A stretch of 64,000 bases of DNA from a virus. Taxonomy: Duplodnaviria; Caudoviricetes. The number at the start of each line of letters is the position of its first letter. The stretch's first letter is position 1. The position numbers were made by a program, and so were the translations under genes. The notes under the pieces were generated by a model. The model made no database searches. It was not told where the DNA came from and saw nothing but the letters and a program-made list of their open reading frames with translations. Location: IMG/VR virus record IMGVR_UViG_3300025640_001000; one strand, given 5' to 3'. This document shows positions 24,663 through 58,533 of this stretch, one piece after another.

Positions 24663-27053
24663 ATGGCACCAGAAACTAACATCTCTGCAAAAAACATTTT
24701 TGTTTGGCACGATTCATATTCGTGGTGTAGTCCTCAGGTAATAACGAGTGTAATTTCCAAAATTGCAATTTCGTCTAATTCACCTTATTTATCAGGTTCA
24801 CCTGAAATTTCATGTGGAGGTGCATATAGTTTAACAACAGACGGAACATTCAGTGAATTTATGTTCGTTGTATCTGCACTTGATATTGACTCTGGTCGTT
24901 GGGACGCAACCACATCAAAGTATCCTTTGGAATTTGAAATAGATAATCAAGGTGCATTTAAAATAACCACTTCATTTGAAAACGGATCACCGACATACAA
25001 ACGAGTTCGTGGGAACATAACTGATTATATAAAACACATATCAACTTATACATGGGAACTTATTGAAGAAACTAATGATGTATTTGGTGATCCAGTTCAA
25101 GTTAGTCGCAAGATAAAATACGGAGATACGAGTCCTGCACCAACGGCAAAATCATCAGATGACGTTTGGGATGTCACCACCTCGTTTGCTTACATTGATT
25201 ATGAAGATTCAACTGCTTTGGCAGCTGCTTATCGCAAATATGAACATCCAATGAATATTTGTATAAGTGGTGGTACAAACCAAATATTGTTGTCTGCGGA
25301 TTTTTTCAAAAAGCACCAAGCAAACACAGAACTTGAAAATGCACGACCCACTTATATAGGTCAATATCAATCATCAATGGAAATAACATCATCTATATAT
25401 TTTGAAAACGATGAATGGAAAGTAAAGTTTTCAAAATTTAGTGAAGGTGAGTTGATTGAAACGGGTGTATTATACACTTCATCACAACCATTAATGAATC
25501 CGTGTTCAATAACACACTGGAAACCAAGTAGTGAGTATACTTCAGTTGAATCGTTATCAATTTTACCTACATCGTGTGATAATATAATTCCTGATTTATT
25601 GTGTGTACAGCACGAATCAAAAAATACGACAACATTACAAGGTTTTTATTCACTTGTTAAACGAGACGAAGAAACACCACGAAAATATAACAATAAAATT
25701 ATGTATTGGTCTATTTTTGACGAACCCAAAACACTTGCAGATTTAGGAATATCAAACTTTGATAATAACACTTTCACTCAATCTCAGATTTGGTGGCAAG
25801 GAAGTTACTGGGTATTGAATTATCGCAAAAACACAGGAAGTAGTTCTAGTCCTGTGTGGGGTCCTATGAAACTTGCATATTTTTCGTTTGATGATGTTGA
25901 ACTACCATCAGACATTAGAAATTGGAAAGTATTTGACAAAGATACATTTGGAAAAATGAAATCGGTTCATGTGGATACCTGTCCTACTCCAACTCCAAGT
26001 CCGTCTCATACCCCCAGTCCCACATTTACACCATCTCCAACGGTTACTGCGTCTCCAACTGCAACGTTGACTCCATGTGAACCAATTGATGTAGGTTGTG
26101 GGGATGTAAAACTTCACTTACAGGCAAACGATCATTACGGTGTTACTATACGTGATCGTAGTTTGTTTCAAAATGAACTTCAATTGATAGACAATGTTAC
26201 ATTTTCAAGAGATACAATGGGTCCATTCGACTTAAATCAACAATCATTTTATTTTGATGGTCAAGATGATCTTATTCGTGTCGAAGTAGAAAAAACGAAC
26301 ATTGGAACAGATATAATGGAATTTAGAGCAGATGCGTTCACAATTGAATTGTTTGTTAAATTTAATACATTGAATCAAAATCAACCTTTAATTTCATACG
26401 GAGATGCTGAAAATTGTTGGTGGAGATTAGTTTATGTAAAATCTGCCGACCGACTTGAATTTTTATATGTAACTAAGGGAAATGGTTTAGTCAAACGAGT
26501 AAATATTTCTGCAAATCTGTTGGAAATTGATACCTGGTATCACATAGTAGTAACACGAAATACTGATATAAATCAATTCCTCATTTATATAGACGGAGTA
26601 GAACGTGGGTCATCAATTGAAACCGAAGAATTAGATTATTCAGAAGAGGATAATATTGTGTATATAGGAAGCAATTTTAGAACTCAGCAAACCGAGGAAG
26701 AAGAATATTTTACTGGATATATGCAAGAAATTAGAGTATCATCTGAATGTGTATACGAATGTGCATTTAATCCAATAACAGAGTTAAATGATGTGTGTTA
26801 CGAAGGAACACCTACTCCAAGTCCGAGTCCAAGTGCTACCGTCACACCAAGTCCTACATTTACTCATTCACCAACTCACACACCATCACCTTCACCGAGT
26901 CCATCGGAAACTCCTTCACCGAGTCACACACCTTCACCGAGTCCATCGGAAACTCCTTCACCGAGTCACACACCTTCACCGAGTCCATCGGAAACTCCTT
27001 CACCGAGTCACACACCTTCACCGAGTCCATCGGAAACTCCTACTAACGAATAA
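24663..27053 (+). CDS. LamG/concanavalin-A domain protein with Pro/Ser/Thr linkers (putative virion surface protein)
   Basis: [38 protein letters not shown]; PTPSP tracts. Confidence 0.8.
26889..27041 (+). repeat. Perfect 42-nt tandem repeat, about 3.6 copies ([14 protein letters not shown])
   Basis: CCTTCACCGAGTCCATCGGAAACTCCTTCACCGAGTCACACA starting at 26889, 26931, 26973, 27015 (last partial). Confidence 0.95.
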
Positions 27054-27059
27054 TAATGT

Positions 27060-27088
27060 TTGACTTATTTGTTTGTTTTGCATAGTAT
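27060..27088 (+). promoter_or_regulatory. Sigma70-type promoter for guaC
   Basis: TTGACT-N17-TAGTAT, ATG at 27096. Confidence 0.7.
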
Positions 27089-27095
27089 TAAACAA

Positions 27096-28118
27096 ATGAA
27101 TAAAAATAATAGGTTGCTCAAGTATTCTGATATAATACTAGTTCCTAAATTAAGCAATATAGAAACTCGCAATGCAGTTGATGTAAGTTGTAAATTCGGA
27201 AATCAATCATTTAATTTACCGGTTGTTCCTGCGAACATGAAAACCGTAATCAATGAAGAACTTGCAAAGATGTTGTCGGATGCAAATTTCTTTTATATTA
27301 TGCATCGGTTTGGTATAAGCAATTACGAGTTTGTAAACACGACAAATAAACAAAATCTCAAATGCATTTCAATTAGTGTGGGTGTAAAGCAAAGTGACAT
27401 TGAGTGTTTGCAGAAAATTGCAGAAGATAATCTTCGTGTTGATTATATTACCATTGATATTGCACACGGTCATAGTGTTTTAATGAAAAACACGATCAAT
27501 GAAATCAAAAAGATTTTCGGTGATAAAACATTTATCATTGCAGGAAATGTAGCAACATCTGATGCAGTAAGTGAAATTACTCAATGGGGAGCAGACGCAA
27601 TTAAGGTTGGTATAGGGCAGGGAAGTCCATGTACAACCAAAGACAAAACAGGATTCACGATGCCAATGTTCAGTTGTATGTTAGAATGTGCCAAAAATGC
27701 TGATATACCATTGATCGCAGATGGTGGTGTTAAATGCAACGGAGACGTTGCAAAAGCAATATGTGCAGGTGCAGACATGGTCATGGTCGGTGGAATGTTT
27801 GCTGAATGCGTTGATTCTCCGGCAGAAAACATCACCAAAACTTTACACACAGGATTTTTCACAAGTGAACCATTTCGACCAACCAACTATAAACCTGAAT
27901 ATAAAGATGTTTGCTATAAACGATATTACGGAAGTGCAAGTCAGTTTAACAAAGGTCATACAAAAAACATAGAAGGAGTTATGCGTGAAGTACCTTGCAA
28001 CGAACTAAGTTATCTTGAAAAGATGGACGAAATGACGATGGACTTACAAAGTAGTGTAAGTTATGCCGGAGGAACAAATTTGAATTGTTTGTCAACTACG
28101 GAATATTTATTGGTATGA
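27096..28118 (+). CDS. guaC: GMP reductase
   Basis: PVVPANM, DIAHGHS, AGNV, KVGIGQGSPCTTKDKTG, IADGG, YYGSAS, SSVSYAG; no CBS domain. Confidence 0.9.
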   Translation: MNKNNRLLKYSDIILVPKLSNIETRNAVDVSCKFGNQSFNLPVVPANMKTVINEELAKMLSDANFFYIMHRFGISNYEFVNTTNKQNLKCISISVGVKQSDIECLQKIAEDNLRVDYITIDIAHGHSVLMKNTINEIKKIFGDKTFIIAGNVATSDAVSEITQWGADAIKVGIGQGSPCTTKDKTGFTMPMFSCMLECAKNADIPLIADGGVKCNGDVAKAICAGADMVMVGGMFAECVDSPAENITKTLHTGFFTSEPFRPTNYKPEYKDVCYKRYYGSASQFNKGHTKNIEGVMREVPCNELSYLEKMDEMTMDLQSSVSYAGGTNLNCLSTTEYLLV

Positions 28119-28333
28119 CATCTGAGCAAAGATATAATTTAGACAAAAAAATGTCAGAGTTTGAATCTTTTGTGGAATTTCATGCATATGCATATGCAAA
28201 TAATATTATATTTGACAATGAAGAGTGGGAAGAGTATAGTAATAAAATGAAAAAATTGTTGCGTGAAAAGAAAAATGCACCAATATATATTGATACCACA
28301 GGATTAATTTTACCAAATATACATAAGGAATAA
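28115..28333 (+). CDS. Hypothetical protein
   Basis: ATGA overlap; TATTTAT at 28104. Confidence 0.5.
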   Translation: MTSEQRYNLDKKMSEFESFVEFHAYAYANNIIFDNEEWEEYSNKMKKLLREKKNAPIYIDTTGLILPNIHKE

Positions 28334-28335
28334 AA

Positions 28336-28605
28336 ATGAGCGAAGAAAATGATTTTACTGTAACCGTTGACGGAGCAGAATATAAGTTTAATGACTTGAG
28401 TGATGAAAACAAGTCGTTGGTTGGCCACATTCGTGACCTCGACTCCCAAGTTGAACAACTTAATTTCCGTTACGAGCAACTTAGTGCATCAAAGAGTTTT
28501 TTCTCGGACAAACTTGTTCAGTCGTTGAAGGCACCTGCCGAAGACGCACCACAAGAAGCAGAAGCAGTTCCACAAGAAGCACCTGCTCAAACCGAGTCTG
28601 CATAA
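28336..28605 (+). CDS. Small coiled-coil phage protein
   Basis: VTVDGAEYKFNDLSDE plus coiled coil and acidic tail. Confidence 0.65.
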   Translation: MSEENDFTVTVDGAEYKFNDLSDENKSLVGHIRDLDSQVEQLNFRYEQLSASKSFFSDKLVQSLKAPAEDAPQEAEAVPQEAPAQTESA

Positions 28606-28641
28606 ACGTAGATATTTAGATTTCACCGATATTTATTATTG

Positions 28642-29289
28642 GTGGAAAATCTAGTTTGTATTTATACCTGCGAATCACACGCAGAGCAATTGAATTTGCT
28701 CAAGAACTCGCCGTTGTACGATGATCTAACAAATTCCAATCATCGTATAATAGAAGTTCGTTCCGGTGGAACACACACCGAGTTTTTGGGTGGAAACCTC
28801 ATATGCAAAGGAACAGAGTCGTATGATGCTCTTTCAATTAAAACATACGAAATGATTGATTATTGTTTTAAAAACTTTGAGTATGATCATTTAATTAAAA
28901 TAGATTGCACTCTTGCGTTTGATGAAGAAAACGAACCAGAGAAGTGGAAACGACAATTCACGACAACCGAGGTAAGCAACTTCGTAAACAAATCTTCTTA
29001 TTTGGATTATGACGGAATTCAATCTCAGTGTGCAACTATGTTATCATTCAGACGTTGGGCAATACGCAAAAACATAAAAACCGAGTCAGTTGCCAATTTG
29101 ATTGGTAACAACACCGCAAATAGATTTTACACAGGCAAGTGTTATTCCATTTCAAGAAACTTTTCCAAGTTTGTTTCTATTAACTGCAAAAACGTGGCAT
29201 ATTCATTTGCCAAGAGGTATGGAGGGATAGAAGATTTATTTATTGGAAAAAGTTATTATAATTTTAGAGTTTTGGACGAGGTACGATGA
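28642..29289 (+). CDS. GT31/galactosyltransferase-like protein
   Basis: ESYDALSIKT, HLIKID, GKCYSIS, EDLFIG. Confidence 0.65.
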   Translation: MENLVCIYTCESHAEQLNLLKNSPLYDDLTNSNHRIIEVRSGGTHTEFLGGNLICKGTESYDALSIKTYEMIDYCFKNFEYDHLIKIDCTLAFDEENEPEKWKRQFTTTEVSNFVNKSSYLDYDGIQSQCATMLSFRRWAIRKNIKTESVANLIGNNTANRFYTGKCYSISRNFSKFVSINCKNVAYSFAKRYGGIEDLFIGKSYYNFRVLDEVR

Positions 29290-30122
29290 GTTTGATATAT
29301 TTGATAAACCTTGATTGCGTGGCAGACAGAGTGCCAGAATTTTCTTCGCAGTTGGATATACACAGAATATCTGCAATAGATACGAGAAGTAGAACAAACG
29401 AGCATACGAAATTTGGATTATCTTTAAATCCACCTGATAAAATATCAAAGTTATACTTTTCATTGTACGCAGGTGCACTTGGTTGTTATTTAAGTCACTA
29501 TATATTTTGGAAGAAAGTGATTGAGGGTAAAAATAATTATGCTCTTGTTCTTGAAGATGATGCTGATCCGAATGATGTGGAACGATTGATTGCATCTGAT
29601 ACTCTTGAAAAACATTTAAACAACAACAAACCGACATTATTGCAGTTAAACAAACGAACCACTTACGACAAACTACCATTTTGGTTTGACGGAACAGAAA
29701 GTTATGCGGTTAACAAAGCAGGAGCAAAATCATTACTTGATTTAACATATGACTTTTCTTGCTTTGAAAATACTTTTATTGAATATGCGTGGGACTGGCC
29801 AGAACTCAAAGGAGGAAAGCAACAATTATTTACAGAGTGGGCAGACCACGATGCAAATATAAATTATACACAAAAAAATACGATTCGTTATGCAGTTGAT
29901 AAATTTATCGGATATTGTGGCATGGATAATGTTCCTACGGAAAAACGATTGAATATAATAATAGAAAATAAAGTAGGAATCAACGAAAAATACAAAAATC
30001 AATCAGATATACTAAATCAACGAAAATTAACATGGCAAATGTCACTACAAGAATTAAAAAAATGCGAGACTGACGATAATTATATGTGGTGGAGTAAGCA
30101 TGAAAACAATTTCAATCAATAA
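29286..30122 (+). CDS. Glycosyltransferase family 25
   Basis: YLINLD, GCYLSH, LVLEDDA, GTESYAV. Confidence 0.85.
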   Translation: MSLIYLINLDCVADRVPEFSSQLDIHRISAIDTRSRTNEHTKFGLSLNPPDKISKLYFSLYAGALGCYLSHYIFWKKVIEGKNNYALVLEDDADPNDVERLIASDTLEKHLNNNKPTLLQLNKRTTYDKLPFWFDGTESYAVNKAGAKSLLDLTYDFSCFENTFIEYAWDWPELKGGKQQLFTEWADHDANINYTQKNTIRYAVDKFIGYCGMDNVPTEKRLNIIIENKVGINEKYKNQSDILNQRKLTWQMSLQELKKCETDDNYMWWSKHENNFNQ

Positions 30123-30936
30123 AACATTTGTAGTTAATTTAGATGATAAAATTCATCGTTACGATTTATTTCGTAATTTACCGAATGTAGAAAGACAACG
30201 TGCGGTGGATTCACGAATTAATTGGTTTGTTTACGAAGATTACAAACTTTCATTGAATCCATGTGGACGAAACACTATTCAATATTTTACGCAATCAAAA
30301 GGAGCAGTTGGGTGTTATCTTAGTCATTATGAAATATGGAGCAAGGTATTAGCAAATAATTACGAGTGGACGTTAATTCTTGAAGATGATGCGAGCATTC
30401 ACGATGCCGAAAGATATGTTTGTAATTATATTGAAATTGAAGATGATGTTGATTTAATTCAATTTAACGATAGAACTCAGCATGGTGATTTGCAAAATTA
30501 TTTTAATGGCACAACTGCATATTTACTGAACCAACGAGCAGCTAAAATTTTATTTGATTCAACACATGAGTTTTCACATTTTAACGAAAATCCAAGTGAA
30601 CTTCTTGAATGGAGAATAAACAAGCACAATTTATATACTTGCTCTTACATTTATGATAATGAAACGAGAACCGAGTGTCTGAAAATACCAAATTCAATAC
30701 GAGTCGCAGTTGATAAACACATTGGATACAATTCGTTTTACTCACTTCCGTCTGACAAAAAAATAAAAATAAAGTTTGATCCAAGAATTAAAATATATGA
30801 AACTAACATCAAGTCGGATGTAACTGGAAACGAAAAACCATTTTATGAAATGAATTGCGAAGAACTTGCTCAGTTAGAAAACAGAAAAGATTTTAAGTGG
30901 TGGGAAAAACCAAATGAATTTAAAAAGAGCATTTAA
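30100..30936 (+). CDS. Glycosyltransferase family 25 (paralog)
   Basis: VVNLD, GCYLSH, LILEDDA, GTTAYLL. Confidence 0.85.
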   Translation: MKTISINKTFVVNLDDKIHRYDLFRNLPNVERQRAVDSRINWFVYEDYKLSLNPCGRNTIQYFTQSKGAVGCYLSHYEIWSKVLANNYEWTLILEDDASIHDAERYVCNYIEIEDDVDLIQFNDRTQHGDLQNYFNGTTAYLLNQRAAKILFDSTHEFSHFNENPSELLEWRINKHNLYTCSYIYDNETRTECLKIPNSIRVAVDKHIGYNSFYSLPSDKKIKIKFDPRIKIYETNIKSDVTGNEKPFYEMNCEELAQLENRKDFKWWEKPNEFKKSI

Positions 30937-33787: not shown

Positions 33788-33794
33788 TTTTACA

Positions 33795-34394
33795 ATGATA
33801 AACGATAAGCATAAGTTTATCTTTGTAAGAGTTACTAAAACTGCATCAACTTCTATAACTGATTGTTTAGAAAAAAGTGTAAAATTGGACTCATATAAAT
33901 GGTCAGTTGTCCAACTAGAAATAAAAGAAAAATGGCAGGATGACGAGAATCATATTCCGATGTGGTTCATAGAAGAAAATATTTCTGATAAAAAGTTTAA
34001 ATCTTACTTTAAATTTTCGTTTGTAAGAAATCCATTTGACAAGTTAGTATCAGCATATGGGTATGATATAAATTGGCATTGCAAGAATAAAATAAAAAAT
34101 GATAATTTAGATACCTTTGCTAGATATATTAAAAGTGGTTTTGGGACACGATTGAAAAACTCATCACAGTATGATTTTACATATGGATGTGATTTCATCG
34201 GAAGATTTGAAAACCTTCAAGAAGACATCAATGTTGTCTGCGACAAAATTAAAATTCCACAACAACAACTTCCACATAAAAACAAATCAAAACACAAATC
34301 TTACAGTGAATACTACGATGACGAAACAAAGCAAATTGTTGCGGAAAAATTCGCAAAAGACATTGAGTATTTCGGTTATGAATTTGGAGAATAG
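33795..34394 (+). CDS. Sulfotransferase (Sulfotransfer_2 family)
   Basis: RVTKTASTS; FVRNPFDKLVS; IGRFENL; FGYEFGE end. Confidence 0.88.
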   Translation: MINDKHKFIFVRVTKTASTSITDCLEKSVKLDSYKWSVVQLEIKEKWQDDENHIPMWFIEENISDKKFKSYFKFSFVRNPFDKLVSAYGYDINWHCKNKIKNDNLDTFARYIKSGFGTRLKNSSQYDFTYGCDFIGRFENLQEDINVVCDKIKIPQQQLPHKNKSKHKSYSEYYDDETKQIVAEKFAKDIEYFGYEFGE

Positions 34395-34396
34395 GA

Positions 34397-34999
34397 ATGA
34401 AAAAATATACAATTACAAAATCGAAAGAAAGCAAGTATGTTTGGTTTCAAATAGCAAAAAATGCGTCGCGTACGACTGTCAATTATTTAAATGAAAACAC
34501 AAAGGTAGACTTTGGATTTCCACTCTACCTTAACAAAGATGCTGGATATCAAAAACCATATGAAAGTGAATATGATGACTATTTTAAATTTACAATAGTT
34601 AGAAATCCGTGGGATAGAATTTTAAGTTTTTATTTAAATAAAATACATGGCAAAGATGTGTACACAGAAAATTATTCCAGTTTTTCTGAATGTAAAACAC
34701 TTAGAGATACTATTTCAATATTAATGACAAAAAATCTTAAAGATTGTGATGTTCATTATCAACTACAAATCGAATGCTTTCCATCTGATAATATTGACTT
34801 TATAGGTCGTTTCGAAAACCTCCAACACGACTTCAATATAATCTGCGACAAAATCGGAATTCCACGACAACAACTTCCACACAAAAACAAAACAAAACAC
34901 AAACACTACACAGAATATTACGATGATGAAACTCGTCAAATTGTTGCAGAAAGATATGCACAGGACATTGAGTATTTCGGATATAAATTTGGAGAGTGA
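34397..34999 (+). CDS. Sulfotransferase (Sulfotransfer_2 family)
   Basis: IAKNASRT; IVRNPWDRILS; FGYKFGE end. Confidence 0.88.
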   Translation: MKKYTITKSKESKYVWFQIAKNASRTTVNYLNENTKVDFGFPLYLNKDAGYQKPYESEYDDYFKFTIVRNPWDRILSFYLNKIHGKDVYTENYSSFSECKTLRDTISILMTKNLKDCDVHYQLQIECFPSDNIDFIGRFENLQHDFNIICDKIGIPRQQLPHKNKTKHKHYTEYYDDETRQIVAERYAQDIEYFGYKFGE

Positions 35000-35002
35000 G
35001 GG

Positions 35003-35596
35003 ATGATTATATCTAAAAAACATAATTTTATTTATATTGCAGTTTCTAAAACAGGATCGACGTCGATACATAAAGCATTTTCAAATTTAGATGATGAAAC
35101 ACTTTTTATTGAAAAAGAAAATGAAGATAATAAAGATAGAGTTAATAAATTTATATATAAACATATTAAAGCAACTGACTTAAAAAAACAAATTGAAAAC
35201 TATGATGAACATTTTAAGTTTTCTTTCGTTAGAAATCCATATGATAGAGCTGTGTCTTGGGTTTACTATTATTATAGAAACAGAAAGATTAATTTAGATG
35301 AACACTCCTTTAAAGAATTAATTTTTAAATTCCCAGACTGGATATGGACCGGCCAACATGAGTTTCTATTTGAAGATAATAAAAATTCAATGAATTTTGT
35401 AGGTAAAGTTGAAAACTTCCAACAAGACTTCAACATAATCTGCGACAAAATTGGAATTCCAAAACAAGAACTTCCACACAAAAACAAAACAAAACATAAA
35501 CACTACACCGAATACTACGATAAAGAAACAAAACAAATTGTTGCAGAAAAATACAGGAAAGACATTGAGTATTTCGGATATGAATTTGGAGAATAA
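35003..35596 (+). CDS. Sulfotransferase (Sulfotransfer_2 family)
   Basis: AVSKTGSTS; FVRNPYDRAVS; FGYEFGE end. Confidence 0.88.
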   Translation: MIISKKHNFIYIAVSKTGSTSIHKAFSNLDDETLFIEKENEDNKDRVNKFIYKHIKATDLKKQIENYDEHFKFSFVRNPYDRAVSWVYYYYRNRKINLDEHSFKELIFKFPDWIWTGQHEFLFEDNKNSMNFVGKVENFQQDFNIICDKIGIPKQELPHKNKTKHKHYTEYYDKETKQIVAEKYRKDIEYFGYEFGE

Positions 35597-37384: not shown

Positions 37385-37793
37385 GGGGGTATTCTGGATT
37401 CGATTTGTATTTAGATATCCAAACTGCACGTGAAGGATAATACACGGCCTTCTCAAAATGTATTAAATTGTTTAAATGGCGAAGATACATTCGTTGCAGA
37501 CCTTCTCGCAGACGCAGAAGCAGAATTCTCTGCTTTAGAAGAAGCGGAAGCTGTGTTGGTGGCATAAATAAGCCCACCCCGTCACCCAAATGATCACACG
37601 ACTAGTTTGGTGTTGGCGTCAACAATCGTGGAACCAGAGATTGTTTTTTCGTTGGAAACTCTGTATAACAATAAAACGAATAGAAAAGGTAGACTTGTTT
37701 GTTGGGTAACTTTTTGAAATTTACGACAAAATAAACGTGTAGACGTTTGGAAAGAAGAATAGAAAGACGCGGGTTCGACTCCCGCTACCTCCA
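37385..37793 (+). ncRNA. ssrA: tmRNA, tag (A)GEDTFVADLLADAEAEFSALEEAEAVLVA
   Basis: 5' GGGGGTA pairs with 3' TACCTCC (G3:U wobble, A discriminator, CCA not encoded); GGATTCGA; T-arm GCGGG-TTCGACT-CCCGC; PK1 GAAGG/CCTTC and TAATACA/TGTATTA; TAAAT-GGC resume context at 37478. Confidence 0.95.
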
Positions 37794-39061: not shown

Positions 39062-39295
39062 ATGATGGAATATGAAGTAATTGATACTTTTGGTAATCGA
39101 GTTATTGGTGTATACGAAACGAGGGATGCCGCGATATATGCAATTAGATTGTATTGTGTACAAAAGATGATGAACAAGGTGAGTTTGTTTGACCAAGACT
39201 TTGTGAATCTTGTTGAAAACGGAACTGAGATAACATATGAAAACCCACTTGGTTATTTCCCCACAAAACCAAAGTTTTTATTAAACGAAGTATGA
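39062..39295 (+). CDS. Hypothetical protein
   Basis: GGGAG SD, ATGA overlap with next gene. Confidence 0.55.
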   Translation: MMEYEVIDTFGNRVIGVYETRDAAIYAIRLYCVQKMMNKVSLFDQDFVNLVENGTEITYENPLGYFPTKPKFLLNEV

Positions 39296-39855
39296 TAAGT
39301 CATACCCACAATTTTATTTTTATTCACATTCCCAAAACAGGAGGATCTTCAGTTGATGATGTATTGAAGAAGTATGTAAGGCGATGGGTTCTGCATGAAT
39401 ATGTATATCCAGATGCAGTACATAAAGCAGAAAAACGCAACGGATTCAAAAACTATTTTTCGTTTTGCTTTGTTAGAAATCCGTGGGATAAAATAGTTTC
39501 TCAGTATCATTTTAATCGGGATAAGTTCGGCATGACGGATTATACGTTTGACGAATATGTTCATGCGTTCAATGAAGGCAAAAGAATTTCTTGGTTTAAT
39601 CCGGACTTTTTGTCATGGATGACTGACGATGACGGTAATATGCTTATGGACTTTGTAGGAAGGTTTGAAAAATTGCAGGAAGATTTTGATTATGTATGTG
39701 ACCAAATTAAAATTCCAAAACAAGAACTTCCACATCACGTTAAAACTGAAAACAGAACACATTATACAGAATACTATAACGAAGAAACAAAGCAAATAAT
39801 TGCGGAAAAATACATGAACGACATCGAGTATTTCGGGTATGAATTTGGAATCTGA
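39292..39855 (+). CDS. Sulfotransferase (Sulfotransfer_2 family)
   Basis: HIPKTGGSS; FVRNPWDKIVS; FGYEFGI end. Confidence 0.9.
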   Translation: MISHTHNFIFIHIPKTGGSSVDDVLKKYVRRWVLHEYVYPDAVHKAEKRNGFKNYFSFCFVRNPWDKIVSQYHFNRDKFGMTDYTFDEYVHAFNEGKRISWFNPDFLSWMTDDDGNMLMDFVGRFEKLQEDFDYVCDQIKIPKQELPHHVKTENRTHYTEYYNEETKQIIAEKYMNDIEYFGYEFGI

Positions 39856-46344: not shown

Positions 46345-46398
46345 GATATACAAACATCTTAACTAAATACTAATGTTGGGTATATTTATTTATAAAAA

Positions 46399-48234
46399 AT
46401 GGCCAGTTTATCAAAAAAATCATTTATATGGATTTCATCCACATTACCTAATCCAGTTTTAACTGAGTTGAGAAACTTGTCTGACTTGATAAGTTCAATT
46501 TCGATATATCAATCTGAGAAATCTTCAAACTATCTCAAAAAGGGTAGCAAGGCAAGTTATAGTGCTACGAAGCAATTTCAAAACGGAGTAGCTTACAACC
46601 AAACTTCAACTGGTTCAATGGGAGTAAATCATGTTATTCAAACTGCGATGGACTTTGACGCAGGTAGAATTATACCCACATTTAGTGAGGGATTTGAAAT
46701 AACTGGATTAACAGGACATTATTCCAACGGAAATGGACCATATAAAATGTCTACTAATTTTAAAAACGACAATGTCGTTTATTTTAACGAAAATAAGTGG
46801 GCAATATGGTATGATTCAGATAAAAATGAATGGGTTCTTACAAATGAACTAATAAAGCACAAGTCACGAACTGAGTATGAATTTATATTAAGAAACGGCA
46901 ACACAGAACCTGATGCCGGCACTTACACCTCGGCCGATGGTACACAAAATGGATACACACCAAGTTCAGTTGGTTCACAAGTTAAAGTGATCATGCCATC
47001 ATTTAGTGAGTCAAGTTCTGTAATTAAAGTTGCAGCCGGTGGAACACACACGCTATTTCTTGATAAATCAAATAATGTGTGGGCTGTGGGGTTGTCTAAC
47101 TATGGCCAAGCAGTCCCAACTGAAATATCTTCACTTCCAAAACGAATTTCAAAACATGATGCGATTGACATAGCAGTTGGTCCTGGTGTATCATTTATTA
47201 CAAAACAAGATGGTTCTGTGTGGACTGTGGGTCAAAACACGAAGGGTACTGGTTTACTAGATAAAAATACACTTCGTAGGCATTCGACTCGGACCATAGG
47301 AACTCTTTTATACAAAGAAAACTTCGGAACTATTCCAAGTTTAACCAAAGCATCAAACGGGGGGCAAGATGATATAATACTTCAGATTAAAGCAAGTGAG
47401 GCAAATTCGTATGTTTTGAAATATGAAAAAATCGATGGTGTATCACGAAAAAACTTATATTCATACGGAAGTAATGAATTCGGACAACTGGGTACTGGAG
47501 ATGCATATTTTGGACTGAACAAAACTCCTGTGTTCGCACAAAACCAATTGGTAACATCAGATTCGGCACGAAATGAAATTCAATTTGACACAGGACGAAA
47601 TTTTTTAATGTGGATTCGTCAAGGTAGATTGTATGGCATTGGCAATTCAAGTTATGGCAATCTTGGGAGACTTCGGACCTCCAATTATGGAAATTCGGTA
47701 GCACAACCAAATCCGTGGGGAAATCTCAAAGCAGTTAAGGTATGTTGTGGCCAGGATTTTTCTGTTGTACTACTAGACGATGGATCTGTTTGGGCAAGTG
47801 GTAATCGTGAAATGAATCGTTTTCCTTCGGCAATAGGTGGAAGCAAAGATACACGTGCTGGAAGTTATTACGTACATGAACAATTTTATAGAATTCTCGC
47901 GGGTGGAGCTCAAGATATAGAGACTGGTCAATTTCATACAATTGTGTTGATGGAAGATGGACGATTGATGAGTTCAGGAGACAACCGATTTGGCCAACTT
48001 GGCCATCCTGGAGCAGTGCAAAATAAACGATCAGTTACTGCTAAATTTCAAAGTATATTGGTTGATGGTAAACCGGTGGTATCTGGTGTGACATATATAC
48101 ACGCAGGTGACTTAAGTACATTTTTCATTATGGACGATTCGTTGTATGCAGTTGGACTCAATAATTACGGACAACTTGGTGATGGTTCCCGAAACAATCT
48201 GACTTCTGCATCAAAAATTTATCCAACTGGATAA
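46399..48234 (+). CDS. RCC1-repeat beta-propeller protein (putative virion protein)
   Basis: VAAGGTHTLFL, GxNxxGQLG repeats. Confidence 0.85.
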   Translation: MASLSKKSFIWISSTLPNPVLTELRNLSDLISSISIYQSEKSSNYLKKGSKASYSATKQFQNGVAYNQTSTGSMGVNHVIQTAMDFDAGRIIPTFSEGFEITGLTGHYSNGNGPYKMSTNFKNDNVVYFNENKWAIWYDSDKNEWVLTNELIKHKSRTEYEFILRNGNTEPDAGTYTSADGTQNGYTPSSVGSQVKVIMPSFSESSSVIKVAAGGTHTLFLDKSNNVWAVGLSNYGQAVPTEISSLPKRISKHDAIDIAVGPGVSFITKQDGSVWTVGQNTKGTGLLDKNTLRRHSTRTIGTLLYKENFGTIPSLTKASNGGQDDIILQIKASEANSYVLKYEKIDGVSRKNLYSYGSNEFGQLGTGDAYFGLNKTPVFAQNQLVTSDSARNEIQFDTGRNFLMWIRQGRLYGIGNSSYGNLGRLRTSNYGNSVAQPNPWGNLKAVKVCCGQDFSVVLLDDGSVWASGNREMNRFPSAIGGSKDTRAGSYYVHEQFYRILAGGAQDIETGQFHTIVLMEDGRLMSSGDNRFGQLGHPGAVQNKRSVTAKFQSILVDGKPVVSGVTYIHAGDLSTFFIMDDSLYAVGLNNYGQLGDGSRNNLTSASKIYPTG

Positions 48235-48238: not shown

Positions 48239-51200
48239 ATGGCCATTGTTAAAAAACGAACCTCTCATGTATGGATCACCTCAGTAGATGGATGTGAAAA
48301 TAAACCTATTGATGATTATTCTGAATATGTTAATTCACTTCTTGCGGTAAATGGTGATAAACAAGAATATATCAGTAAATCACCACACAACATTACCGAA
48401 TTTAATTGTGGTTCTACATATACTTTATTTTCCGACAAAGTAAATTATTATGTTCCCAACTTGGTTGAATCAAATATTGATAAAGATGAAGGTAGAATAA
48501 GTCCTCATATTTTTGAACGATTTGTAATGTATGGTTTAGATGAATATTACCTTGATGCCAACGGAATTTATATTTTAACATCCACATTCAAAAACAGAAA
48601 ACCCACATACACTAATCGTGAGGGAACATGGAAAATATTTTGGGAAACCGACACAAAGTGGAATTTAGTGCCAACTGCATTCAATTCAGTTGAACCTCCA
48701 TTTCTTGATAAACCTTTATTGAATGATCACAATGAACCAACAAGTGGTTTTTATACAGGTCAAAATCAAAAAGGATATACTTCTCATTCTATTAAATCAT
48801 TTGAAATAACTGATTTGATTGATTACTATGTTACTGCAAATGGAAACTACAATGTTACGTTTTTCTTTAAAAATGATCGTCAAACATATCGTCACGAAAC
48901 TAATCGTTGGTGGATTTGGTGGGATTCAAATAAAAACAGATGGGAACTCACTTACTCAGAAAACGATTCATACGAACGACCATATACAGATAGATTGTTC
49001 AATTTAGATGATGATGTAATTGGAGGTTTGTGGGAAAGTTTAGATGGAGTGCAAAAAGGATTGGGTCCCAATTCTCCTGCGTTACCTCCCACACCAACAC
49101 CAACTGCCACTCCGACACCAACTGCTACACCAACTCCGACACCAACTCCGACACCAACTCCGACTGAAGTTATAAATGAAATTGTGGATGTAGCTTCAGG
49201 TGATGATTTTACTTTGATTTTAAAAACCACCGGAAAAGTGGAAGTAACTGGTAACAACGAACATGGTTCGTTGGCAACCGGAGATAGACTTACAAAAGAT
49301 TACAAACGAGAATCAAAAATTTCTGATGTAAAAGCAATTGCGGCGGGAAAACGACATTCTTTATTTTTGAAAAATGATGGTTCTTTGTATGTGTGTGGTG
49401 ACAATTCATATGGTCAATTGGGAAATACTGATGTAACAAGTTCGGTGTCAGACCCAATGTTGGTGGAATCTGCTGACGTGATAAGTATCTCATGTACTGC
49501 GTTTGGTTCTTTGTTCGTTAAAAATAATGGAAAAGTTTATGCGTTCGGATACAATAAAAACGGAACACTTGGAACAGGATCGTTTGATAATATAACAACT
49601 CCTATTGAAATCAACAACAAACATACTTTGACAAATGTCACGATGGGATATGATCCAAAAACCGTGACAAATACAAACGGAAATCAAATGATTCGGGATG
49701 AAGTTTCTAGAAGCTTCAAATCAGTAAACAATAATTGTATAAATTATACAGAAGAACGAGGTTTGGTTTTCGATTTCAATGAAAGAAACGATTTCTTTGA
49801 TATGGGAAATGTTCACAATGAAATATTCAAAACAGGAACATTTTCATTTTCATTTTGGTGCAATCTACGTTCTCATCAATCAACCGAACACAATACACGT
49901 GGTGGAATGTTAATTTCAAAGTGGTATTCAAGTGATGCGTTGTGGTTGAGAAATTCATTTATAATTTATGCTTCAGGAACATTTGTATCTGCACATGAAA
50001 ACTCAGTAACACATATACTTGATGAATCTGGAAACTCTGCTAGTTTACCTCTTAATACTTGGTTGCATATGGCATATGTACTTGAAGACGGAAAACTTAA
50101 CATTTATATAAACGGAGAACAACAACACATTTCCAACAAAAATCACATACATAGATTTTCTGATCAAGCAACCTCCCGATTAGCTTTGGGTATTTTGCAC
50201 CACAACAAAAGCTATGCACTCAATGGAATGATGGATGATTTCAGAATGTTTGATAAAACTTTATCTGATGGTGACATTATGTCGTTGTACAAAAACGATG
50301 CTTATTTTGGTGACGATGTAGAATTAACTGAGTTTCCTGAAATGAAAGAAGTAACATCAGGTTACTCTCATTCATTTTTAATATCAAAGCACAACGAACT
50401 TTATGGTTTTGGTCAAAACGACCACGGACAACTTGGTGATTCAACTCTTGAAAACTCATTTGCTCCAAAAAAAGTGTATGAAGGTAGAATTAAAAAAGTT
50501 TCTGCTGGATCTGCTCATAGTATCGCATTAACTGAAGATGACCGATTATTAATGGCAGGTAGAAACGATGTAGGGCAAATTGGAGCAGGAGCTGCACCTG
50601 GATACAGAAAGTTCACATACATTCAAAAACCAGAGATTGTCAACTTTGCAGCCGGTGCTGGTCATAGTTTGATTTTAAACTATAAAGGCAATCTGATGGT
50701 CACCGGTAAAAATACTGATGGTCAACTTGGAACAGGAAACTTTAGAAATCAAAATACATTTTTAGCAAACAATATTCAAAAGGTTATCAATGTATTTGCT
50801 GGTGCGAAAAATAGTTACTTGTTGTTGTCTAATGGTAAGTTACTTGGAATGGGTGACAATGATTTATATCAGTTAGCAGATGGAACAACATCTGACAGAA
50901 CAGATCCAGTTGAAGTTGGAAACGAAGCAATTCCTCCGGAGACTCCTACTCCTACTCCTACTCCTACTCCAACCTACAATGAGTTTGATACAGATATGGA
51001 GTGTGATGTAACCTTTGATTATTGGTTGCAAAATGCACCAACAAAACAAGGAATGTCAGATTTTGCAAAATATCAAAAAACATTCACATTGAATCCATTC
51101 TCTGTTCAAAGAGTAATGCAATTCGAATTTGCATCTACTCACATAAACGAAGGTAGGCATCTTGAAATAAAAGACTTGGAGTTATCGTCAGAAAAAACTG

Positions 51201-54200: not shown

Positions 54201-55600
54201 GTCGTGGCAACTCTGAAGGTGGTGATGGACCATGGGAAGTTTCTCCGTTCGTTCATGCTCCTGAACCAAAGGGTTGGAAAAATGACGGAATCAGTGTAAT
54301 TGTAGAAACAGACGCACCCAAAGGAGTAAATTTAATTGACGAGTCACTTCGTGCATCTTGGCACGTATCATCAGGAACATTACCAAATACCGCGGAGGTA
54401 AACGGAAGTCCTGTTGGATTCGTTGAATATACAGGTGACATTAATTTTGATAAACCAACTCATGTTAAAAATATAAAAGTATCTGCTTCTTCGCAACAAG
54501 ATACTTGGATACGTGGAATTGAACTTCAGCAAAATAAAACTCCATCCGAAAATGTTGCACCTTATTACTACATAGATAGTAAAATCTCATCTGAACATCT
54601 TCCTGCGTTTACTTTATCGTTTTTCTATAATGTTCAAGATTACAACGAAGTTGATATTGCAGATATGACAAGTCCAATGTCAGGTGCACAAGGAGTATTT
54701 TGTTTTAACTATAAACCATCTGAGTTTGTTAGAATGTTTACATTAAAAAACAAACAATTTTCACCAAGTGTTCCAACTAAATATTTTGATAATATAGTTC
54801 CTACCACGGGTACTAGTTTATACATTGATGGAGGACCTTTTAAAACTCCTCAACTATTGGCCGCAGATTTACAACGAAATAAAACATATAGTGTAACAAT
54901 TCGGTATGCTGAACCAGATGAACAAGCAACTCAAGAAGATAATCCATCAAGATACATTAGAACTGAAACTGGTTATGATTTTGGAACTGATCCAGGATCA
55001 GTAGAAACTCAGGTAGTAAATGAACACACAGATTCCGAGGAATCTGCCGAAGTTATGACATTAGAGTATTTGTTGGAAAACATACATTTGATAGATGAAT
55101 ACGGAGTAGATTTCTTTGACAATGTTTTTATCAAAGTAACAAATACAGGAAAACTATCAGGTTACAATTCATCTTATACAAAATATGCAACTGGCAACCG
55201 CACATGGTATCTTCAAAAAGGAACGAACGGAGCTCGTTGGGCATACGATAATAGACATCCATTTAAACGATTTAATTTGTATTTAAAATCATGGCCAGGA
55301 TCAAGAAGATGTATAGTGATCAAAAAACAAATCAAAACAAGAGATTTAAGTAAAGGTCAGTTTGATGTGACACTAGTTGACACAAGTACAACTTCTAAAA
55401 CAAAAATCGTAAAGTCGGTGGAAAATCACAATTTCATATTTGATTGGACTAAAATTAATAAACTTAGTTTCGGTGGTGGAGCAAATTCTGCATTTGGAGG
55501 ATTTAGAATGTATGATAGAATATTATCAGACCAAGAAGCAGAAAAAATTTATGATTTGAGTAATCCAAGATTCAATCAACTTGGTAATACATATCCCTAG
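48239..55600 (+). CDS. Giant multidomain surface protein (RCC1, LamG, FG-GAP propeller, PT linkers, novel repeats), 2453 aa
   Basis: RCC1 repeats; LamG (FSFSFW, WLHMAYV, GMMDDFRMF); FG-GAP (DxFGxSVAI...GAVYVF); four PT tracts. Confidence 0.85.
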   Translation: MAIVKKRTSHVWITSVDGCENKPIDDYSEYVNSLLAVNGDKQEYISKSPHNITEFNCGSTYTLFSDKVNYYVPNLVESNIDKDEGRISPHIFERFVMYGLDEYYLDANGIYILTSTFKNRKPTYTNREGTWKIFWETDTKWNLVPTAFNSVEPPFLDKPLLNDHNEPTSGFYTGQNQKGYTSHSIKSFEITDLIDYYVTANGNYNVTFFFKNDRQTYRHETNRWWIWWDSNKNRWELTYSENDSYERPYTDRLFNLDDDVIGGLWESLDGVQKGLGPNSPALPPTPTPTATPTPTATPTPTPTPTPTPTEVINEIVDVASGDDFTLILKTTGKVEVTGNNEHGSLATGDRLTKDYKRESKISDVKAIAAGKRHSLFLKNDGSLYVCGDNSYGQLGNTDVTSSVSDPMLVESADVISISCTAFGSLFVKNNGKVYAFGYNKNGTLGTGSFDNITTPIEINNKHTLTNVTMGYDPKTVTNTNGNQMIRDEVSRSFKSVNNNCINYTEERGLVFDFNERNDFFDMGNVHNEIFKTGTFSFSFWCNLRSHQSTEHNTRGGMLISKWYSSDALWLRNSFIIYASGTFVSAHENSVTHILDESGNSASLPLNTWLHMAYVLEDGKLNIYINGEQQHISNKNHIHRFSDQATSRLALGILHHNKSYALNGMMDDFRMFDKTLSDGDIMSLYKNDAYFGDDVELTEFPEMKEVTSGYSHSFLISKHNELYGFGQNDHGQLGDSTLENSFAPKKVYEGRIKKVSAGSAHSIALTEDDRLLMAGRNDVGQIGAGAAPGYRKFTYIQKPEIVNFAAGAGHSLILNYKGNLMVTGKNTDGQLGTGNFRNQNTFLANNIQKVINVFAGAKNSYLLLSNGKLLGMGDNDLYQLADGTTSDRTDPVEVGNEAIPPETPTPTPTPTPTYNEFDTDMECDVTFDYWLQNAPTKQGMSDFAKYQKTFTLNPFSVQRVMQFEFASTHINEGRHLEIKDLELSSEKTAPFLVEILNQEIIPPPELPDYQSYVITDKSYDLVALKNENIDLQSSIANDYKPVGLTSTILTIEDLIENPNLITELGGPQALDNIGIGVREPLKLFGGSTSTNLYYESSIIRPFYLQLGRKGLLHTYNNAHVFAPHGLFIKSWRGSRKYAIRTNSLNDNIDTSYKLNVTINVPPLTSACVLLAENSEGTPKISQKLFSLDTNAINDKFGESVAMTKTDAIVGSHYDSDTTSQAGSVYFMQLKTQNEIDSWVLQQKIPNPDRHTGDHFGISVAISDYVAVVGANNANGVNRNTGAVYVFYKSVENYWQFAQKLEAPDGETGDNFGMSVTIDATDDVQRIVVGAYTHGETDSGGAYVFETNPIRNTEAINLKPVYTFTQKLVPNSPDTNNNYFGRSLSLFKHQLVVGAWGDSNEAHKSGCVYFYNLMPKNAPAPRLSEDIELVDGPSALSSNSPFGFKLIGKSFHPTDMADAYFGFSVAIHSTIALVGCHGDSTKGEKAGSVFVFRKSEGTWKHYTTLYPDNKVNSNHEYGYQVAVHYNRFIVSAFRDDVEKQDAGSCYLYAFDGEDCRKLKRIVSLDSSAGDMLGSGVTIHKDYAMVGASGEDFKNAKDSGCVYTIDIPDNITFVDHEPTPTPTPTPTPTPTPSPSIASDECEVTLYYDVHLKDGEESSILNKEYHLKKVFKKSDKSQTITEKLIVLTDPMLINGDPKLNFIKTFKALPGEHTKLDVMRDGVDIHFYNKVIDDGDCQKKLEDCHIIYSYVLPPIHYECSFGEIPPTPTPTPTPTPEPILDYEVTEYGLTANNYDLLAIGQKLFRHTIAQDYEEFNMIPTLIYIEDLIENPRLITEIGVTNLNNAGIVCRVPGKLSATLGGSTNEYYYDSGTKYRPYYLQIGKAGYLHTYGGTHVFARHDIYIKSWPHNYRYLVKTVGKSIEEVKPLSVQYTSTSREMYEPSGFRNHKPFWTGSVTIPSSLGGSGRPVDSYIWYENNHWNWNTQFSGNEKLHCRGNSEGGDGPWEVSPFVHAPEPKGWKNDGISVIVETDAPKGVNLIDESLRASWHVSSGTLPNTAEVNGSPVGFVEYTGDINFDKPTHVKNIKVSASSQQDTWIRGIELQQNKTPSENVAPYYYIDSKISSEHLPAFTLSFFYNVQDYNEVDIADMTSPMSGAQGVFCFNYKPSEFVRMFTLKNKQFSPSVPTKYFDNIVPTTGTSLYIDGGPFKTPQLLAADLQRNKTYSVTIRYAEPDEQATQEDNPSRYIRTETGYDFGTDPGSVETQVVNEHTDSEESAEVMTLEYLLENIHLIDEYGVDFFDNVFIKVTNTGKLSGYNSSYTKYATGNRTWYLQKGTNGARWAYDNRHPFKRFNLYLKSWPGSRRCIVIKKQIKTRDLSKGQFDVTLVDTSTTSKTKIVKSVENHNFIFDWTKINKLSFGGGANSAFGGFRMYDRILSDQEAEKIYDLSNPRFNQLGNTYP

Positions 55601-55672
55601 AATTTTTTATCGTTTTTTCTTATTTTCATAGTTTTTGTTGTTTTTACTCAGTATATACATATATATAATAAT

Positions 55673-56140
55673 ATGAAGATACATCGTCCACTTTTAGAAA
55701 GTGAGATAAAAGTTGCCCAAGATGCCAGTCACTCAGCAGCGGAAGCAGCCAGAAAACTCAATGTAAGTTACAACACATATAAAAAATATGCTAAACTTTA
55801 TGGCATCATGGAAAGATGTAAATGTTTAGATGCTTCAGGTTTACCAAAAGTTCATAATCCATATCGTGGAAAATATCCATTAGAACAAATTTTAATGGGA
55901 ATGCATCCAGATTATCCACCACACCGTTTGCGAAAAAAATTATTCGCATCTAATCTTAAACAGCAAGTGTGTGAAGTGTGTGGGTATAACGAACCAAGAG
56001 TAACTGACGGAAAACTTCCATTGGTGCTTGCATTCAAAGATGGAGATCGAAGCAACCATCTATTAGAAAACCTAGAAATTATTTGTTACAATTGTTATCA
56101 TAACACTCACGGAAATTTGTTTGGAATAACCATCAAATAA
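55673..56140 (+). CDS. HTH plus degenerate HNH/zinc-finger protein
   Basis: AAEAARKLNVSYNTYKKY; CEVC...FKDGDRSNHLLENL..ICYNC. Confidence 0.65.
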   Translation: MKIHRPLLESEIKVAQDASHSAAEAARKLNVSYNTYKKYAKLYGIMERCKCLDASGLPKVHNPYRGKYPLEQILMGMHPDYPPHRLRKKLFASNLKQQVCEVCGYNEPRVTDGKLPLVLAFKDGDRSNHLLENLEIICYNCYHNTHGNLFGITIK

Positions 56141-56187
56141 CACAATTGTTTTATTATATTAAGTAGATTGGGTTCTATTTATATAAT

Positions 56188-58533
56188 ATGAGATATATTG
56201 CGAGATTCGTAGATGGTGATTCTGTGCAAACATTCAAGGATCAGTTTGATGGTGACATCCTTGTAGAGTTTGCATTACTTAAAATGTTAGTGCTTGAGTT
56301 GACTGATGATAATTCAGCTTATTCAAAAGACGATCTTGAAGATTTTCCTGGTGTACTTTACATCAAAGAAGATTTGATAGTTGCATTGGATGATAAAACT
56401 CCTATCAATGAAAAGCAAGTTAACAAACAAAAAGTAGATGCGTATGGTTCTACTTTGCTTGGTACTGTTAATGGTACTACTGAATATATCACTCATTTAG
56501 AGATACTCAATTCGCAAAATTATGAGTATGCAACTGATGCACATGATTATACAACAACTGCGAGTGGTAAAAATGTTGATTGCTTTATCCTCGATACAGG
56601 CATTTTATCTAATAATTATTTTTTATCAAACCGAGTTTTCAAAACAGATTTTTCTACTACGATAAATGTTGAAGGAACTAATCAAGAAGACAACGATGGC
56701 CACGGAACAGTATGTGCAATGTTGATAGCAGGAGATGAATATGGAGTTGCGATTGATACCAATCTATATTCATTGAAAGTATTAAATTCATCTGGCACAG
56801 GAAGTTTTTCAACGATCATCGCAGCCATTGATAATGTTTTGAAATTTCATTCAAATAAAATCAACAACAATCCAAGTATAATAAACATGAGTTTAGGTTA
56901 TGTACCAAGTCCTGAGTCTCCTGTGATTCACAGTGATTTTACAAGTAATGACGATAATCCATTTAAGGATGCGATAAAAGAAGCAATAACAAGTGGAATT
57001 CATGTGGTACTTGCAGCGGGAAATGGATTTAACTCAGATTCAGTTCATTATGGTCCAATGTTATCTGTGTATAGCAATGGAAGTTTAAATTTATCACCGG
57101 AAGAATCTGGTAACAATGATCCTGGTCAAGGAATACCAATTGTGGTGGGAAGTCTTGATAGTGCATCTGCTCATTTAAATAGTAGTCCAAATATTATGTC
57201 TTCGTTTAGCAACTATGGCAAAGGAAACACAATCAATAGTACAGGAGGTCAATTATTGATGCCCAGATGGAATACAACTCAATCAATGGTTGATTCAAAC
57301 GATGGAAATTATTTTGTTGACGAAGAAAGTGGAACTAGTTTTTCTGCTCCGATTGTAACCGGATTATTGTGTATGCACTTAGAAAAAAATCCAAATGCAA
57401 CACCTTTGGAAGCACGTAATTGGTTGTTGCAAACTGCATCTTCAAATCAAATAGATAATTTATTCGAATATACTTCAGTTGAAAGTACATTTGATGTGTC
57501 ATGGAACAAAGAATCAGAAATTCTGATTTACGAAACAAACACACCAGGTGTGAACTTAACGGAAACTGCGTCTGCAAACTCGGTTGTTCAGATTTTAAGA
57601 ACTTCGGTAAATGATATTAGTGATGTAGAAGATAATATTGCCCAACTGAATTTAGTAAACGAAGATTGGTGGAATGTTGTATCGGTATCTGAGCAGAAAC
57701 TTAAATTAACACCATTTACAACAGGTCAAGATATAAGTTATGATGTAGATGATTTTAATCTTAGTTATGAAGGCCAACTAAAAATAGCAAATTTAGTAGG
57801 TACACACGAATCATCGGATGGAGTAAAATTTTGGCAAAGAATGTCTACCGAGAACCGATTGTATGATGAAAATACATCAATATCAGTTTATCTTGGTGCA
57901 TTAGAACAAACTAATAATATACGAGCATTTAATCCGTATCAAATATATAATCCCGTGTGGGGTGCAAACGAAGAATTGGATTTAAATTCTATGTTTTCAG
58001 ATTCTCCTTTGCTGAATGTAAAACTTGAAACTTCACGTGGAGAGCAACCTATGCCTATAACTTTTAAATTAGTTGCAGGTAATTTTCCGACTGGAGTTGC
58101 TTTAAATGAAGATGGAACTTTTTCAAAATCTATTGACTATGAACGATCTGTTTATGAGCATGGTTCGGTTATCATTGAAATAAGTTCCGAATACTCGTCA
58201 CCATTCGCAAAGGTGTATAAGGTGATTGATAACGGAGTACCTACAAAAATGACAACAACTGAAATCACAAAAGATGGATTCGTATGGATGGGAAGTGAGT
58301 GTGGCCAAACAACGAATATTATGTTAAACACTCAAACATCTTTAATAAAAGAAGTTATCAGAGTCAGAGATAACAAATGCGAAGTTTGGAGAAACGATAT
58401 GCCGACCACATTAACCCCATTTGAATCAATAGAAGTAGGTAACATTTACTATATAAAATTGGTTGATGAAAAAACCGGAACTTTGTCTGATGTATTTCGT
58501 GACAACCAAAATATGTTGATTATTAGTTGTTAA
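56188..58533 (+). CDS. Subtilisin-like serine protease (S8) with I9-like prodomain and C-terminal extension
   Basis: Catalytic LDTG, GHGT, SGTSFSAP; oxyanion AAGN; INMSLG. Confidence 0.92.
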   Translation: MRYIARFVDGDSVQTFKDQFDGDILVEFALLKMLVLELTDDNSAYSKDDLEDFPGVLYIKEDLIVALDDKTPINEKQVNKQKVDAYGSTLLGTVNGTTEYITHLEILNSQNYEYATDAHDYTTTASGKNVDCFILDTGILSNNYFLSNRVFKTDFSTTINVEGTNQEDNDGHGTVCAMLIAGDEYGVAIDTNLYSLKVLNSSGTGSFSTIIAAIDNVLKFHSNKINNNPSIINMSLGYVPSPESPVIHSDFTSNDDNPFKDAIKEAITSGIHVVLAAGNGFNSDSVHYGPMLSVYSNGSLNLSPEESGNNDPGQGIPIVVGSLDSASAHLNSSPNIMSSFSNYGKGNTINSTGGQLLMPRWNTTQSMVDSNDGNYFVDEESGTSFSAPIVTGLLCMHLEKNPNATPLEARNWLLQTASSNQIDNLFEYTSVESTFDVSWNKESEILIYETNTPGVNLTETASANSVVQILRTSVNDISDVEDNIAQLNLVNEDWWNVVSVSEQKLKLTPFTTGQDISYDVDDFNLSYEGQLKIANLVGTHESSDGVKFWQRMSTENRLYDENTSISVYLGALEQTNNIRAFNPYQIYNPVWGANEELDLNSMFSDSPLLNVKLETSRGEQPMPITFKLVAGNFPTGVALNEDGTFSKSIDYERSVYEHGSVIIEISSEYSSPFAKVYKVIDNGVPTKMTTTEITKDGFVWMGSECGQTTNIMLNTQTSLIKEVIRVRDNKCEVWRNDMPTTLTPFESIEVGNIYYIKLVDEKTGTLSDVFRDNQNMLIISC

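Follow-up and report, generated by a model that had tools for sequence, protein, structure and literature searches.

A two-part N-terminal domain shared by large proteins of a putative marine megaphage, a candidate virion anchor

Three large proteins encoded on a 64,000-nucleotide stretch of viral DNA (IMG/VR record IMGVR_UViG_3300025640_001000; Duplodnaviria, Caudoviricetes; the whole stretch is hereafter called the window) begin with the same module of about 145 residues which, as judged by sequence and profile searches, represents a domain family of marine megaphages that had not been described. The proteins are designated here by the window position at which their genes start, namely 24663, 46399 and 48239, the last being also referred to as the giant protein. 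An earlier reading of the nucleotide sequence (the original prediction) had proposed that a module of about 85 residues was carried by four unrelated proteins, the fourth being a subtilisin-type protease (56188, hereafter the subtilase), and that it served as a plug-in anchor loading interchangeable cargo onto a common virion scaffold. The relationship of the three N-termini was confirmed, the module turned out to be longer and composite, and a role in fastening these proteins to the virus particle stands, in our judgment, at about even chances.

The N-termini of 24663, 46399 and 48239 are truly homologous. The strings quoted in the original prediction were all present where it had placed them, and BLASTP comparison of the first 150 residues gave E-values of 3e-12 for 46399 and 48239, 1e-8 for 24663 and 48239, and 2e-6 for 24663 and 46399. 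Restriction of the analysis to the first 90-95 residues yielded Smith-Waterman z-scores between 5.3 and 8.2, and none of 1000 shuffled sequences equalled the real score, so that the alignment of the three N-termini withstood the shuffled control that had been suggested for it. The shared unit is not limited to some 85 residues. It extends to about residue 145 and consists of two parts, sub-domain 1 (about 90 residues) and sub-domain 2 (about 55 residues), the second being duplicated in the giant protein. Sub-domain 1 is characterized by a tryptophan, a co-varying cysteine pair and the motifs CGxxY and DxDxGR. An aromatic-W pair is found around residue 12, a cysteine about seven residues further on, CGxxY around residue 57 and DxDxGR around residue 83; all three N-termini conform to this spacing, 46399 being devoid of both cysteines. 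Sub-domain 2 follows the pattern GxY..T.FKN.KPTY...W.W...W.L. Separate profiles of the two halves matched the three proteins at 1e-12 to 1e-24.

As had been proposed, a profile hidden Markov model (HMM) was built and scanned. Comparison of the three-copy profile with 1.84 billion cluster representatives retrieved 54 proteins at E<=1e-3, 18 of them at E<=1e-10. Of these 54 matches, at least two (P0029, with cystatin repeats, and P0049) appear to be false positives boosted by repeats. Many relatives carry the arrangement GWxG...C...CGxGY...GR(I/V), and canonical GWxG proteins were recovered at E-values down to 4e-16; at the place of GWxG, the window copies read VW(I/H)(T/S/D)S. Among the 40 full-length copies, the module begins within the first 24 residues in 39 and at residue 1 in 31. 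Column counts over these 40 sequences were 39 for W12, 40 for G58, 35 and 34 for the two cysteines, 32 for G85 and 30 for R86. Both cysteines (positions 19 and 57 in the giant protein) are present in 34 sequences and absent in five, a single sequence being mixed; the 46399 copy belongs to this cysteine-less clade, and four relatives likewise have neither residue. Joint retention or loss of the two cysteines points to a disulfide or a similar staple, and the pair is probably a disulfide staple of sub-domain 1. The domains found behind the module differ among relatives (RCC1/LamG/FG-GAP combinations, Big_13 immunoglobulin-like repeats, fn3, F5/8C and LamG), which indicates that the cargo was really exchanged.

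The distribution of relatives was also analyzed. The cluster of P0009, a close relative of the N-terminal 1070 residues of the giant protein, was found on marine contigs, the longest of 398 kb and some of them from Tara Oceans. Searches of other collections returned little: the module and its relative P0013 gave no match by tblastn in GenBank phages at E<=1, scans of IMG/VR with queries A2, P0009, P0032 and A5 gave no confirmed relative, and no relative was found with A5 in GTDB (one genome per species, 185,579 prokaryote species). A metagenome scan with A2 yielded a single contig of 1.3 kb (L001), which offered no gene context. Query A3 was too variable for a pattern search, and word-indexed protein searches with it returned only 1 and 8 matches. 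A short form of the family was also observed, which is absent from the window: in P0016, P0019, P0021-P0023 and P0038 (about 300 residues), the module precedes another small domain, and the protein ends in an acidic tail that is conserved, of the type L.TED....L.VED....IT.E.

Sub-domain 2 also occurs alone, in P0033, P0042, P0046 and P0056-P0058, with two to four matched stretches per protein and no Pfam family. P0033 and P0042 display three to four tandem copies behind N-termini resembling signal peptides, and have no sub-domain 1. These occurrences characterize sub-domain 2 as a repeat in its own right that is more widespread; it may represent an extracellular repeat not described before and found more widely than the phage module.

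The statement that the domain was not recognizable was in agreement with all searches performed. No family covered the N-terminal 150 residues of 24663, 46399 and 48239 in Pfam (E<=10) or PHROGs (E<=1), none covered the C-terminal 350 residues of the subtilase in either collection, no Pfam family recurred among 26 family members, and neither a sequence profile search of the PDB nor Atlas look-ups gave a usable match. The copy of the giant protein was modelled with AlphaFold2 from an alignment of 26 sequences, with a mean predicted local distance difference test (pLDDT) of 82.4 and a predicted template modelling score (pTM) of 0.54. The model consists of two compact, mainly beta units (residues 1-88 and 94-145) with only three short helices; sub-domain 1 is predicted to be a small beta-rich unit and sub-domain 2 a four-stranded beta unit. 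Foldseek searches of the PDB and BFVD with the two-unit model as query gave no match at E<=1e-3, and such missing matches do not establish a new fold. VIA-align comparison with 48,161 chains gave a best Z of 4.3, for RCK_C domains, a value rated by the tool as below usual noise. The best of the weak structural look-alikes of sub-domain 1 in the same comparison included two subtilase propeptides, at Z 3.5-3.7, which is far below significance.

The cargo types named in the original prediction were recovered by Pfam: Laminin_G_3 in 24663, RCC1 in 46399, RCC1, Laminin_G_3 and FG-GAP in the giant protein, and Peptidase_S8 in the subtilase (Table 1). Its description of the carriers as unrelated does not hold for 46399 and 48239, with which 24663 has, at BLAST level, nothing but the module in common. 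Besides the module, 46399 and 48239 share a linker and RCC1 repeats (several high-scoring segment pairs, down to E 2e-16), the second gene starting 5 nt past the stop codon of the first, and they are, on these sequence grounds, tandem paralogues. The LamG protein (24663) terminates in a low-complexity linker with no domain beyond; this C-terminal tail is encoded by a perfect tandem repeat of 42 bp (positions 26887-27041, + strand; 3.7 copies, 100% matches). A gene for an HNH endonuclease (55673-56140, + strand) lies between the genes of the giant adhesin and the subtilase.

Table 1. Position of the module copies, their carriers and other features in the window (PT and PS, proline/threonine- and proline/serine-rich; iE, independent E-value; aa, amino acids)
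Feature	Position	Strand	Description
LamG protein, 796 aa	24663..27053	+	module aa 1-138; unassigned middle; PT linker aa 439-454; Laminin_G_3 aa 554-695 (Pfam); PS/PT-rich C-terminal tail from aa 715
Module copy 1	24663..25076	+	sub-domain 1 about aa 6-81, both Cys, iE 5.9e-12; sub-domain 2 about aa 87-136, iE 4.1e-12
RCC1 protein, 611 aa	46399..48234	+	module aa 1-151; RCC1 beta-propeller from about aa 200 to 611 (Pfam)
Module copy 2, Cys-less variant	46399..46851	+	sub-domain 1 aa 1-93, iE 1.8e-21; sub-domain 2 aa 95-151, iE 1.3e-24; P and N replace both conserved Cys
Giant protein, 2453 aa	48239..55600	+	module; second sub-domain 2; PT linker aa 282-311; RCC1; Laminin_G_3 aa 525-680; RCC1; seven FG-GAP repeats; more PT linkers; unassigned C-terminal third
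Module copy 3 (modelled with AlphaFold2)	48239..48676	+	sub-domain 1 aa 1-89, Cys19 and Cys57, iE 2.6e-24; sub-domain 2 aa 92-146, iE 2.1e-19
Extra lone sub-domain 2 of the giant protein	48797..48952	+	aa 187-238; HMM iE 7.3e-14
Subtilase, 781 aa	56188..58533	+	Peptidase_S8 aa 134-424 (Pfam); DTG, HGT and GTSFSAP motifs; N-terminus without hydrophobic stretch as read by eye; C-terminal 350 aa unassigned
Probable divergent sub-domain 1 at subtilase C-terminus	58267..58461	+	aa 694-758, possibly to the end; FVWxGSxC motif; second Cys replaced
TATTTAT promoter-like motif	24652..24658	+	11 nt before the 24663 start codon; also at 46387 (and 46383) and 56176
Bacterial TSP3 Ca-binding repeat protein	1-1884	+	5' end open; without module
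Collagen-repeat protein, tail-fibre-like	3024-5096	+	ends in Peptidase_S74 intramolecular chaperone; without module
Glycosyltransferases	11477, 15647, 29286, 30100, 30914		near sulfotransferases
Six paralogous Sulfotransfer_2 genes	14147-15643, 33795-35596, 39292-39855	+	26-50% mutual identity
NeuB sialic-acid-synthase homologue	18342		near sulfotransferases
tmRNA (transfer-messenger RNA) gene	37385-37793	+	ARAGORN; tag peptide AEAEFSALEEAEAVLVA
ClpC-type ATPase	60090-62615		

Recurrence of the first motifs at the C-terminus of the subtilase, as originally claimed, was not supported by pairwise comparison with the three modules (BLASTP E 0.18 or worse; shuffle z between -0.1 and 2.6) but was supported by profiles, and then for the first half of the module only. 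The main profile, based on the 40 full-length modules with the subtilase left out, matched subtilase residues 694-758 over its positions 6-72, at the place initially indicated, and ranked the subtilase C-terminus as the top non-member among the 601 open reading frames of the window, with a domain iE of 0.16 in that whole-window search. The real profile score was reached by none of 3000 shuffled versions of the last 140 residues. With a profile of sub-domain 1, scores were 12.1 bits for the subtilase, 14.3-17.1 bits for all but one of its seven orthologues and 5.0 bits for the remaining one, as compared with a maximum of 4.9 bits in a background of 643 natural chunks (66,000 residues) and with reversed controls that were all below 0. 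The seven orthologues (46-94% identity) match at the same place. Alignment of the subtilase C-termini with the modules by hhalign gave a P-value of 4.7e-4 and a probability of only 32%. The AlphaFold2 model of this region, based on seven sequences, had a pLDDT of 38.7 and was unusable, so that its fold could not be compared with that of sub-domain 1.

These results leave two interpretations of the subtilase C-terminus. The match may be a chance resemblance, the window then containing three module carriers only, and this would be in line with the pairwise E-values, the whole-window iE, the hhalign probability, the single orthologue at 5 bits and the unusable model. Chance, however, would have to account for a first rank among all non-members at the very place that had been predicted, for a score that no shuffled sequence attains, and for six orthologues well above the natural background and the reversed controls; we consider it rather unlikely. 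By its profile matches, the subtilase C-terminus probably represents a copy of sub-domain 1, diverged and without sub-domain 2, located at the opposite end of its carrier.

The proteins 24663, 46399 and 48239 are large and adhesin-like, and in the most likely of the mechanisms considered the module would form the structural, proximal part of fibres on the virion surface. It would bind there to one shared site, located either on the particle itself or on a different fibre protein, and the distal RCC1 propellers, LamG lectin folds and FG-GAP repeats, carried behind PT linkers, would contact the host or the environment. Such a fastening of adhesin-like proteins to the virus particle, drawn by analogy with known phage anchors, could equally prove right or wrong. 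It is suggested by the N-terminal position, by the exchanged adhesion-type cargo, by the large-phage setting and by the fact that inspection by eye revealed no hydrophobic N-terminal stretch in these three proteins. That the module keeps so strictly to the N-terminus across very different architectures, and at about 25% identity, speaks for selection acting on its position. Several observations weigh on the other side. The module genes are surrounded by nucleotide-metabolism and glycan-building genes, with no recognizable structural block. Lone repeats of sub-domain 2 fit a generic extracellular spacer or binding repeat equally well as a docking piece. The subtilase copy is C-terminal, does not include sub-domain 2 and has weak scores, and part of what 46399 and 48239 share is plain paralogy owing to their tandem duplication. 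The proposal of a plug-in anchor with interchangeable cargo is thus retained as regards the position of the module, the variety of the cargo and the undescribed nature of the domain; the principle itself is already known, and the picture of four unrelated carriers was overstated.

Another possible explanation is that the shared N-terminus was merely inherited, the carriers being duplicated paralogues whose distal parts were later swapped, with a head that is structural or ligand-binding (e.g. glycan-binding) and has no docking role. The adjacent pair 46399 and 48239, with module and RCC1 in common, would be expected in this case, and the window contains many paralogue families; repetition of sub-domain 2 without sub-domain 1, behind signal-peptide-like N-termini, is what binding or spacer repeats display. 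Binding domains, however, rarely show so strict an N-terminal position, and 24663 shares nothing beyond the module with the pair, which makes mere inheritance unlikely.

A further possibility is an assembly function of the module, either homotypic or heterotypic. In that case, modules would bind each other or nucleate the folding of oligomers, bundling different heads, and the protease, in one fibre that needs no separate socket on capsid or baseplate. N-terminal oligomerization domains are common in phage fibres, and an assembly role would fit this frequency as well as the presence of the module on several proteins of one genome, possibly also on a protease at the opposite end, and the lack of an evident socket-like partner in the window. 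We regard it as distinctly unlikely, as no coiled coil or trimerization signature was seen and as the monomer was modelled with good confidence as a pair of compact globular units. A tag for targeting or maturation, directing proteins to the particle under assembly or to an export pathway and being recognized or removed by the co-encoded subtilase via its own sub-domain 1, appears very improbable. An apparently active subtilase that bears a probable sub-domain 1 is encoded downstream of the giant gene, at a distance of 0.6 kb, and subtilase propeptides are among the weak look-alikes mentioned above. These structural hints are nevertheless at noise level, no conserved cleavage motif was seen past the module, and 145 folded residues with a probable disulfide are unlike the known short capsid-targeting peptides.

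A conserved N-terminal anchor followed by a variable distal part is a well-known phage design; it is the domain itself that is undescribed. Phage receptor-binding proteins are attached to the tail, to a branching protein or to each other through structural domains or short conserved peptides at their N-terminus, and their distal parts are interchangeable (PMC6872550). Comparison was made with the Klebsiella phage KP32, Menlow and PhiK64-1 groups, with G7C gp63.1/gp66 and with the tailspike complexes of Ackermannviridae (PMC6872550; PMC11414711). As in these systems, a conserved extreme N-terminus is found on several modular surface proteins of one genome, with variable binding or enzymatic parts located distally. 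However, no sequence or fold similarity to these anchors was found with Pfam, PHROGs, Foldseek or VIA-align, and the present module is a two-domain unit of 145 residues with a probable disulfide. The cargo also differs, consisting here of RCC1, LamG and FG-GAP domains and there of depolymerase beta-helices. No T4gp10-like socket was identified in the window, attachment being in this case an inference.

The analogy with cellulosomal dockerins, drawn in the original prediction, does not extend beyond the idea. Like type I dockerins (PF00404), the module would be a small unit loading varied cargo on a scaffold and may occupy either end of its carrier. Type I dockerins consist of two tandem calcium-binding loop-helix (F-hand) repeats of about 22 residues. 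The module gave no Pfam match at E<=10, is predicted to consist mainly of beta strands and displays neither a duplicated F-hand nor paired calcium-binding helical loops, and no cohesin-like partner was found in the window.

The original prediction had also placed all carriers in units led by the motif TATTTAT. At 11-12 nt, the motif precedes 24663, 46399 and 56188; 48239 has none of its own and directly follows 46399. Of the 32 copies of TATTTAT on the + strand, 18 fall in the 60 nt preceding a + start, and 10 of these are at a distance of 9-14 nt. The latter distance was observed before 10 genes of mixed function (24652, 46387, 56176, 1900, 13414, 17466, 28630, 37887, 43006, 44634, 62624), and genes with an upstream TATTTAT include those for an alanine dehydrogenase and a deoxyribonucleotidase. 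Its occurrence before unrelated genes indicates a general promoter-like motif and not a mark of module genes. If used as a promoter, the motif would give rise to mRNAs with almost no leader.

The window has the appearance of a segment from a very large, uncultured marine phage. Almost all of its genes are on one strand, its GC content is 32-38%, and its genes include those for a helicase, an HNH endonuclease, a DNA methyltransferase and a deoxyribonucleotidase, together with the collagen/S74 tail-fibre-like gene, the ClpC-type ATPase and the tmRNA of Table 1. The marine megaphage Mar_Mega_1 also has a tmRNA (PMC9723777). Megablast of 8 kb of the window gave no match among GenBank phages, so that the window is not close to Mar_Mega_1, provided that the record of the latter is in the collection; tblastn with ClpC and the helicase did not place the phage lineage. 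The set of genes for glycan building and sulfation listed in Table 1 adjoins proteins whose long PT/PS linkers could be sites of O-glycosylation.

For megaphages, which are uncultured, a domain marking the surface proteins would make the whole adhesin repertoire retrievable from metagenomes; it would also allow the attachment site on the particle to be sought by co-folding and would provide a handle for displaying cargo. As no counterpart was found in Pfam, PHROGs or the PDB, solving its structure would probably yield a small fold not described before. If real, the copy on the protease would indicate that the virion bears an enzyme on its surface. A much broader claim can be formulated, in which sub-domain 1 would be a new fold and a universal docking tag of marine megaphages, functional at either carrier end and loading adhesins together with an active subtilisin-type protease onto one virion site. 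This seems a decidedly doubtful proposition; if true, phages would have an equivalent of the cohesin-dockerin system, one that also displays an enzyme on the particle.

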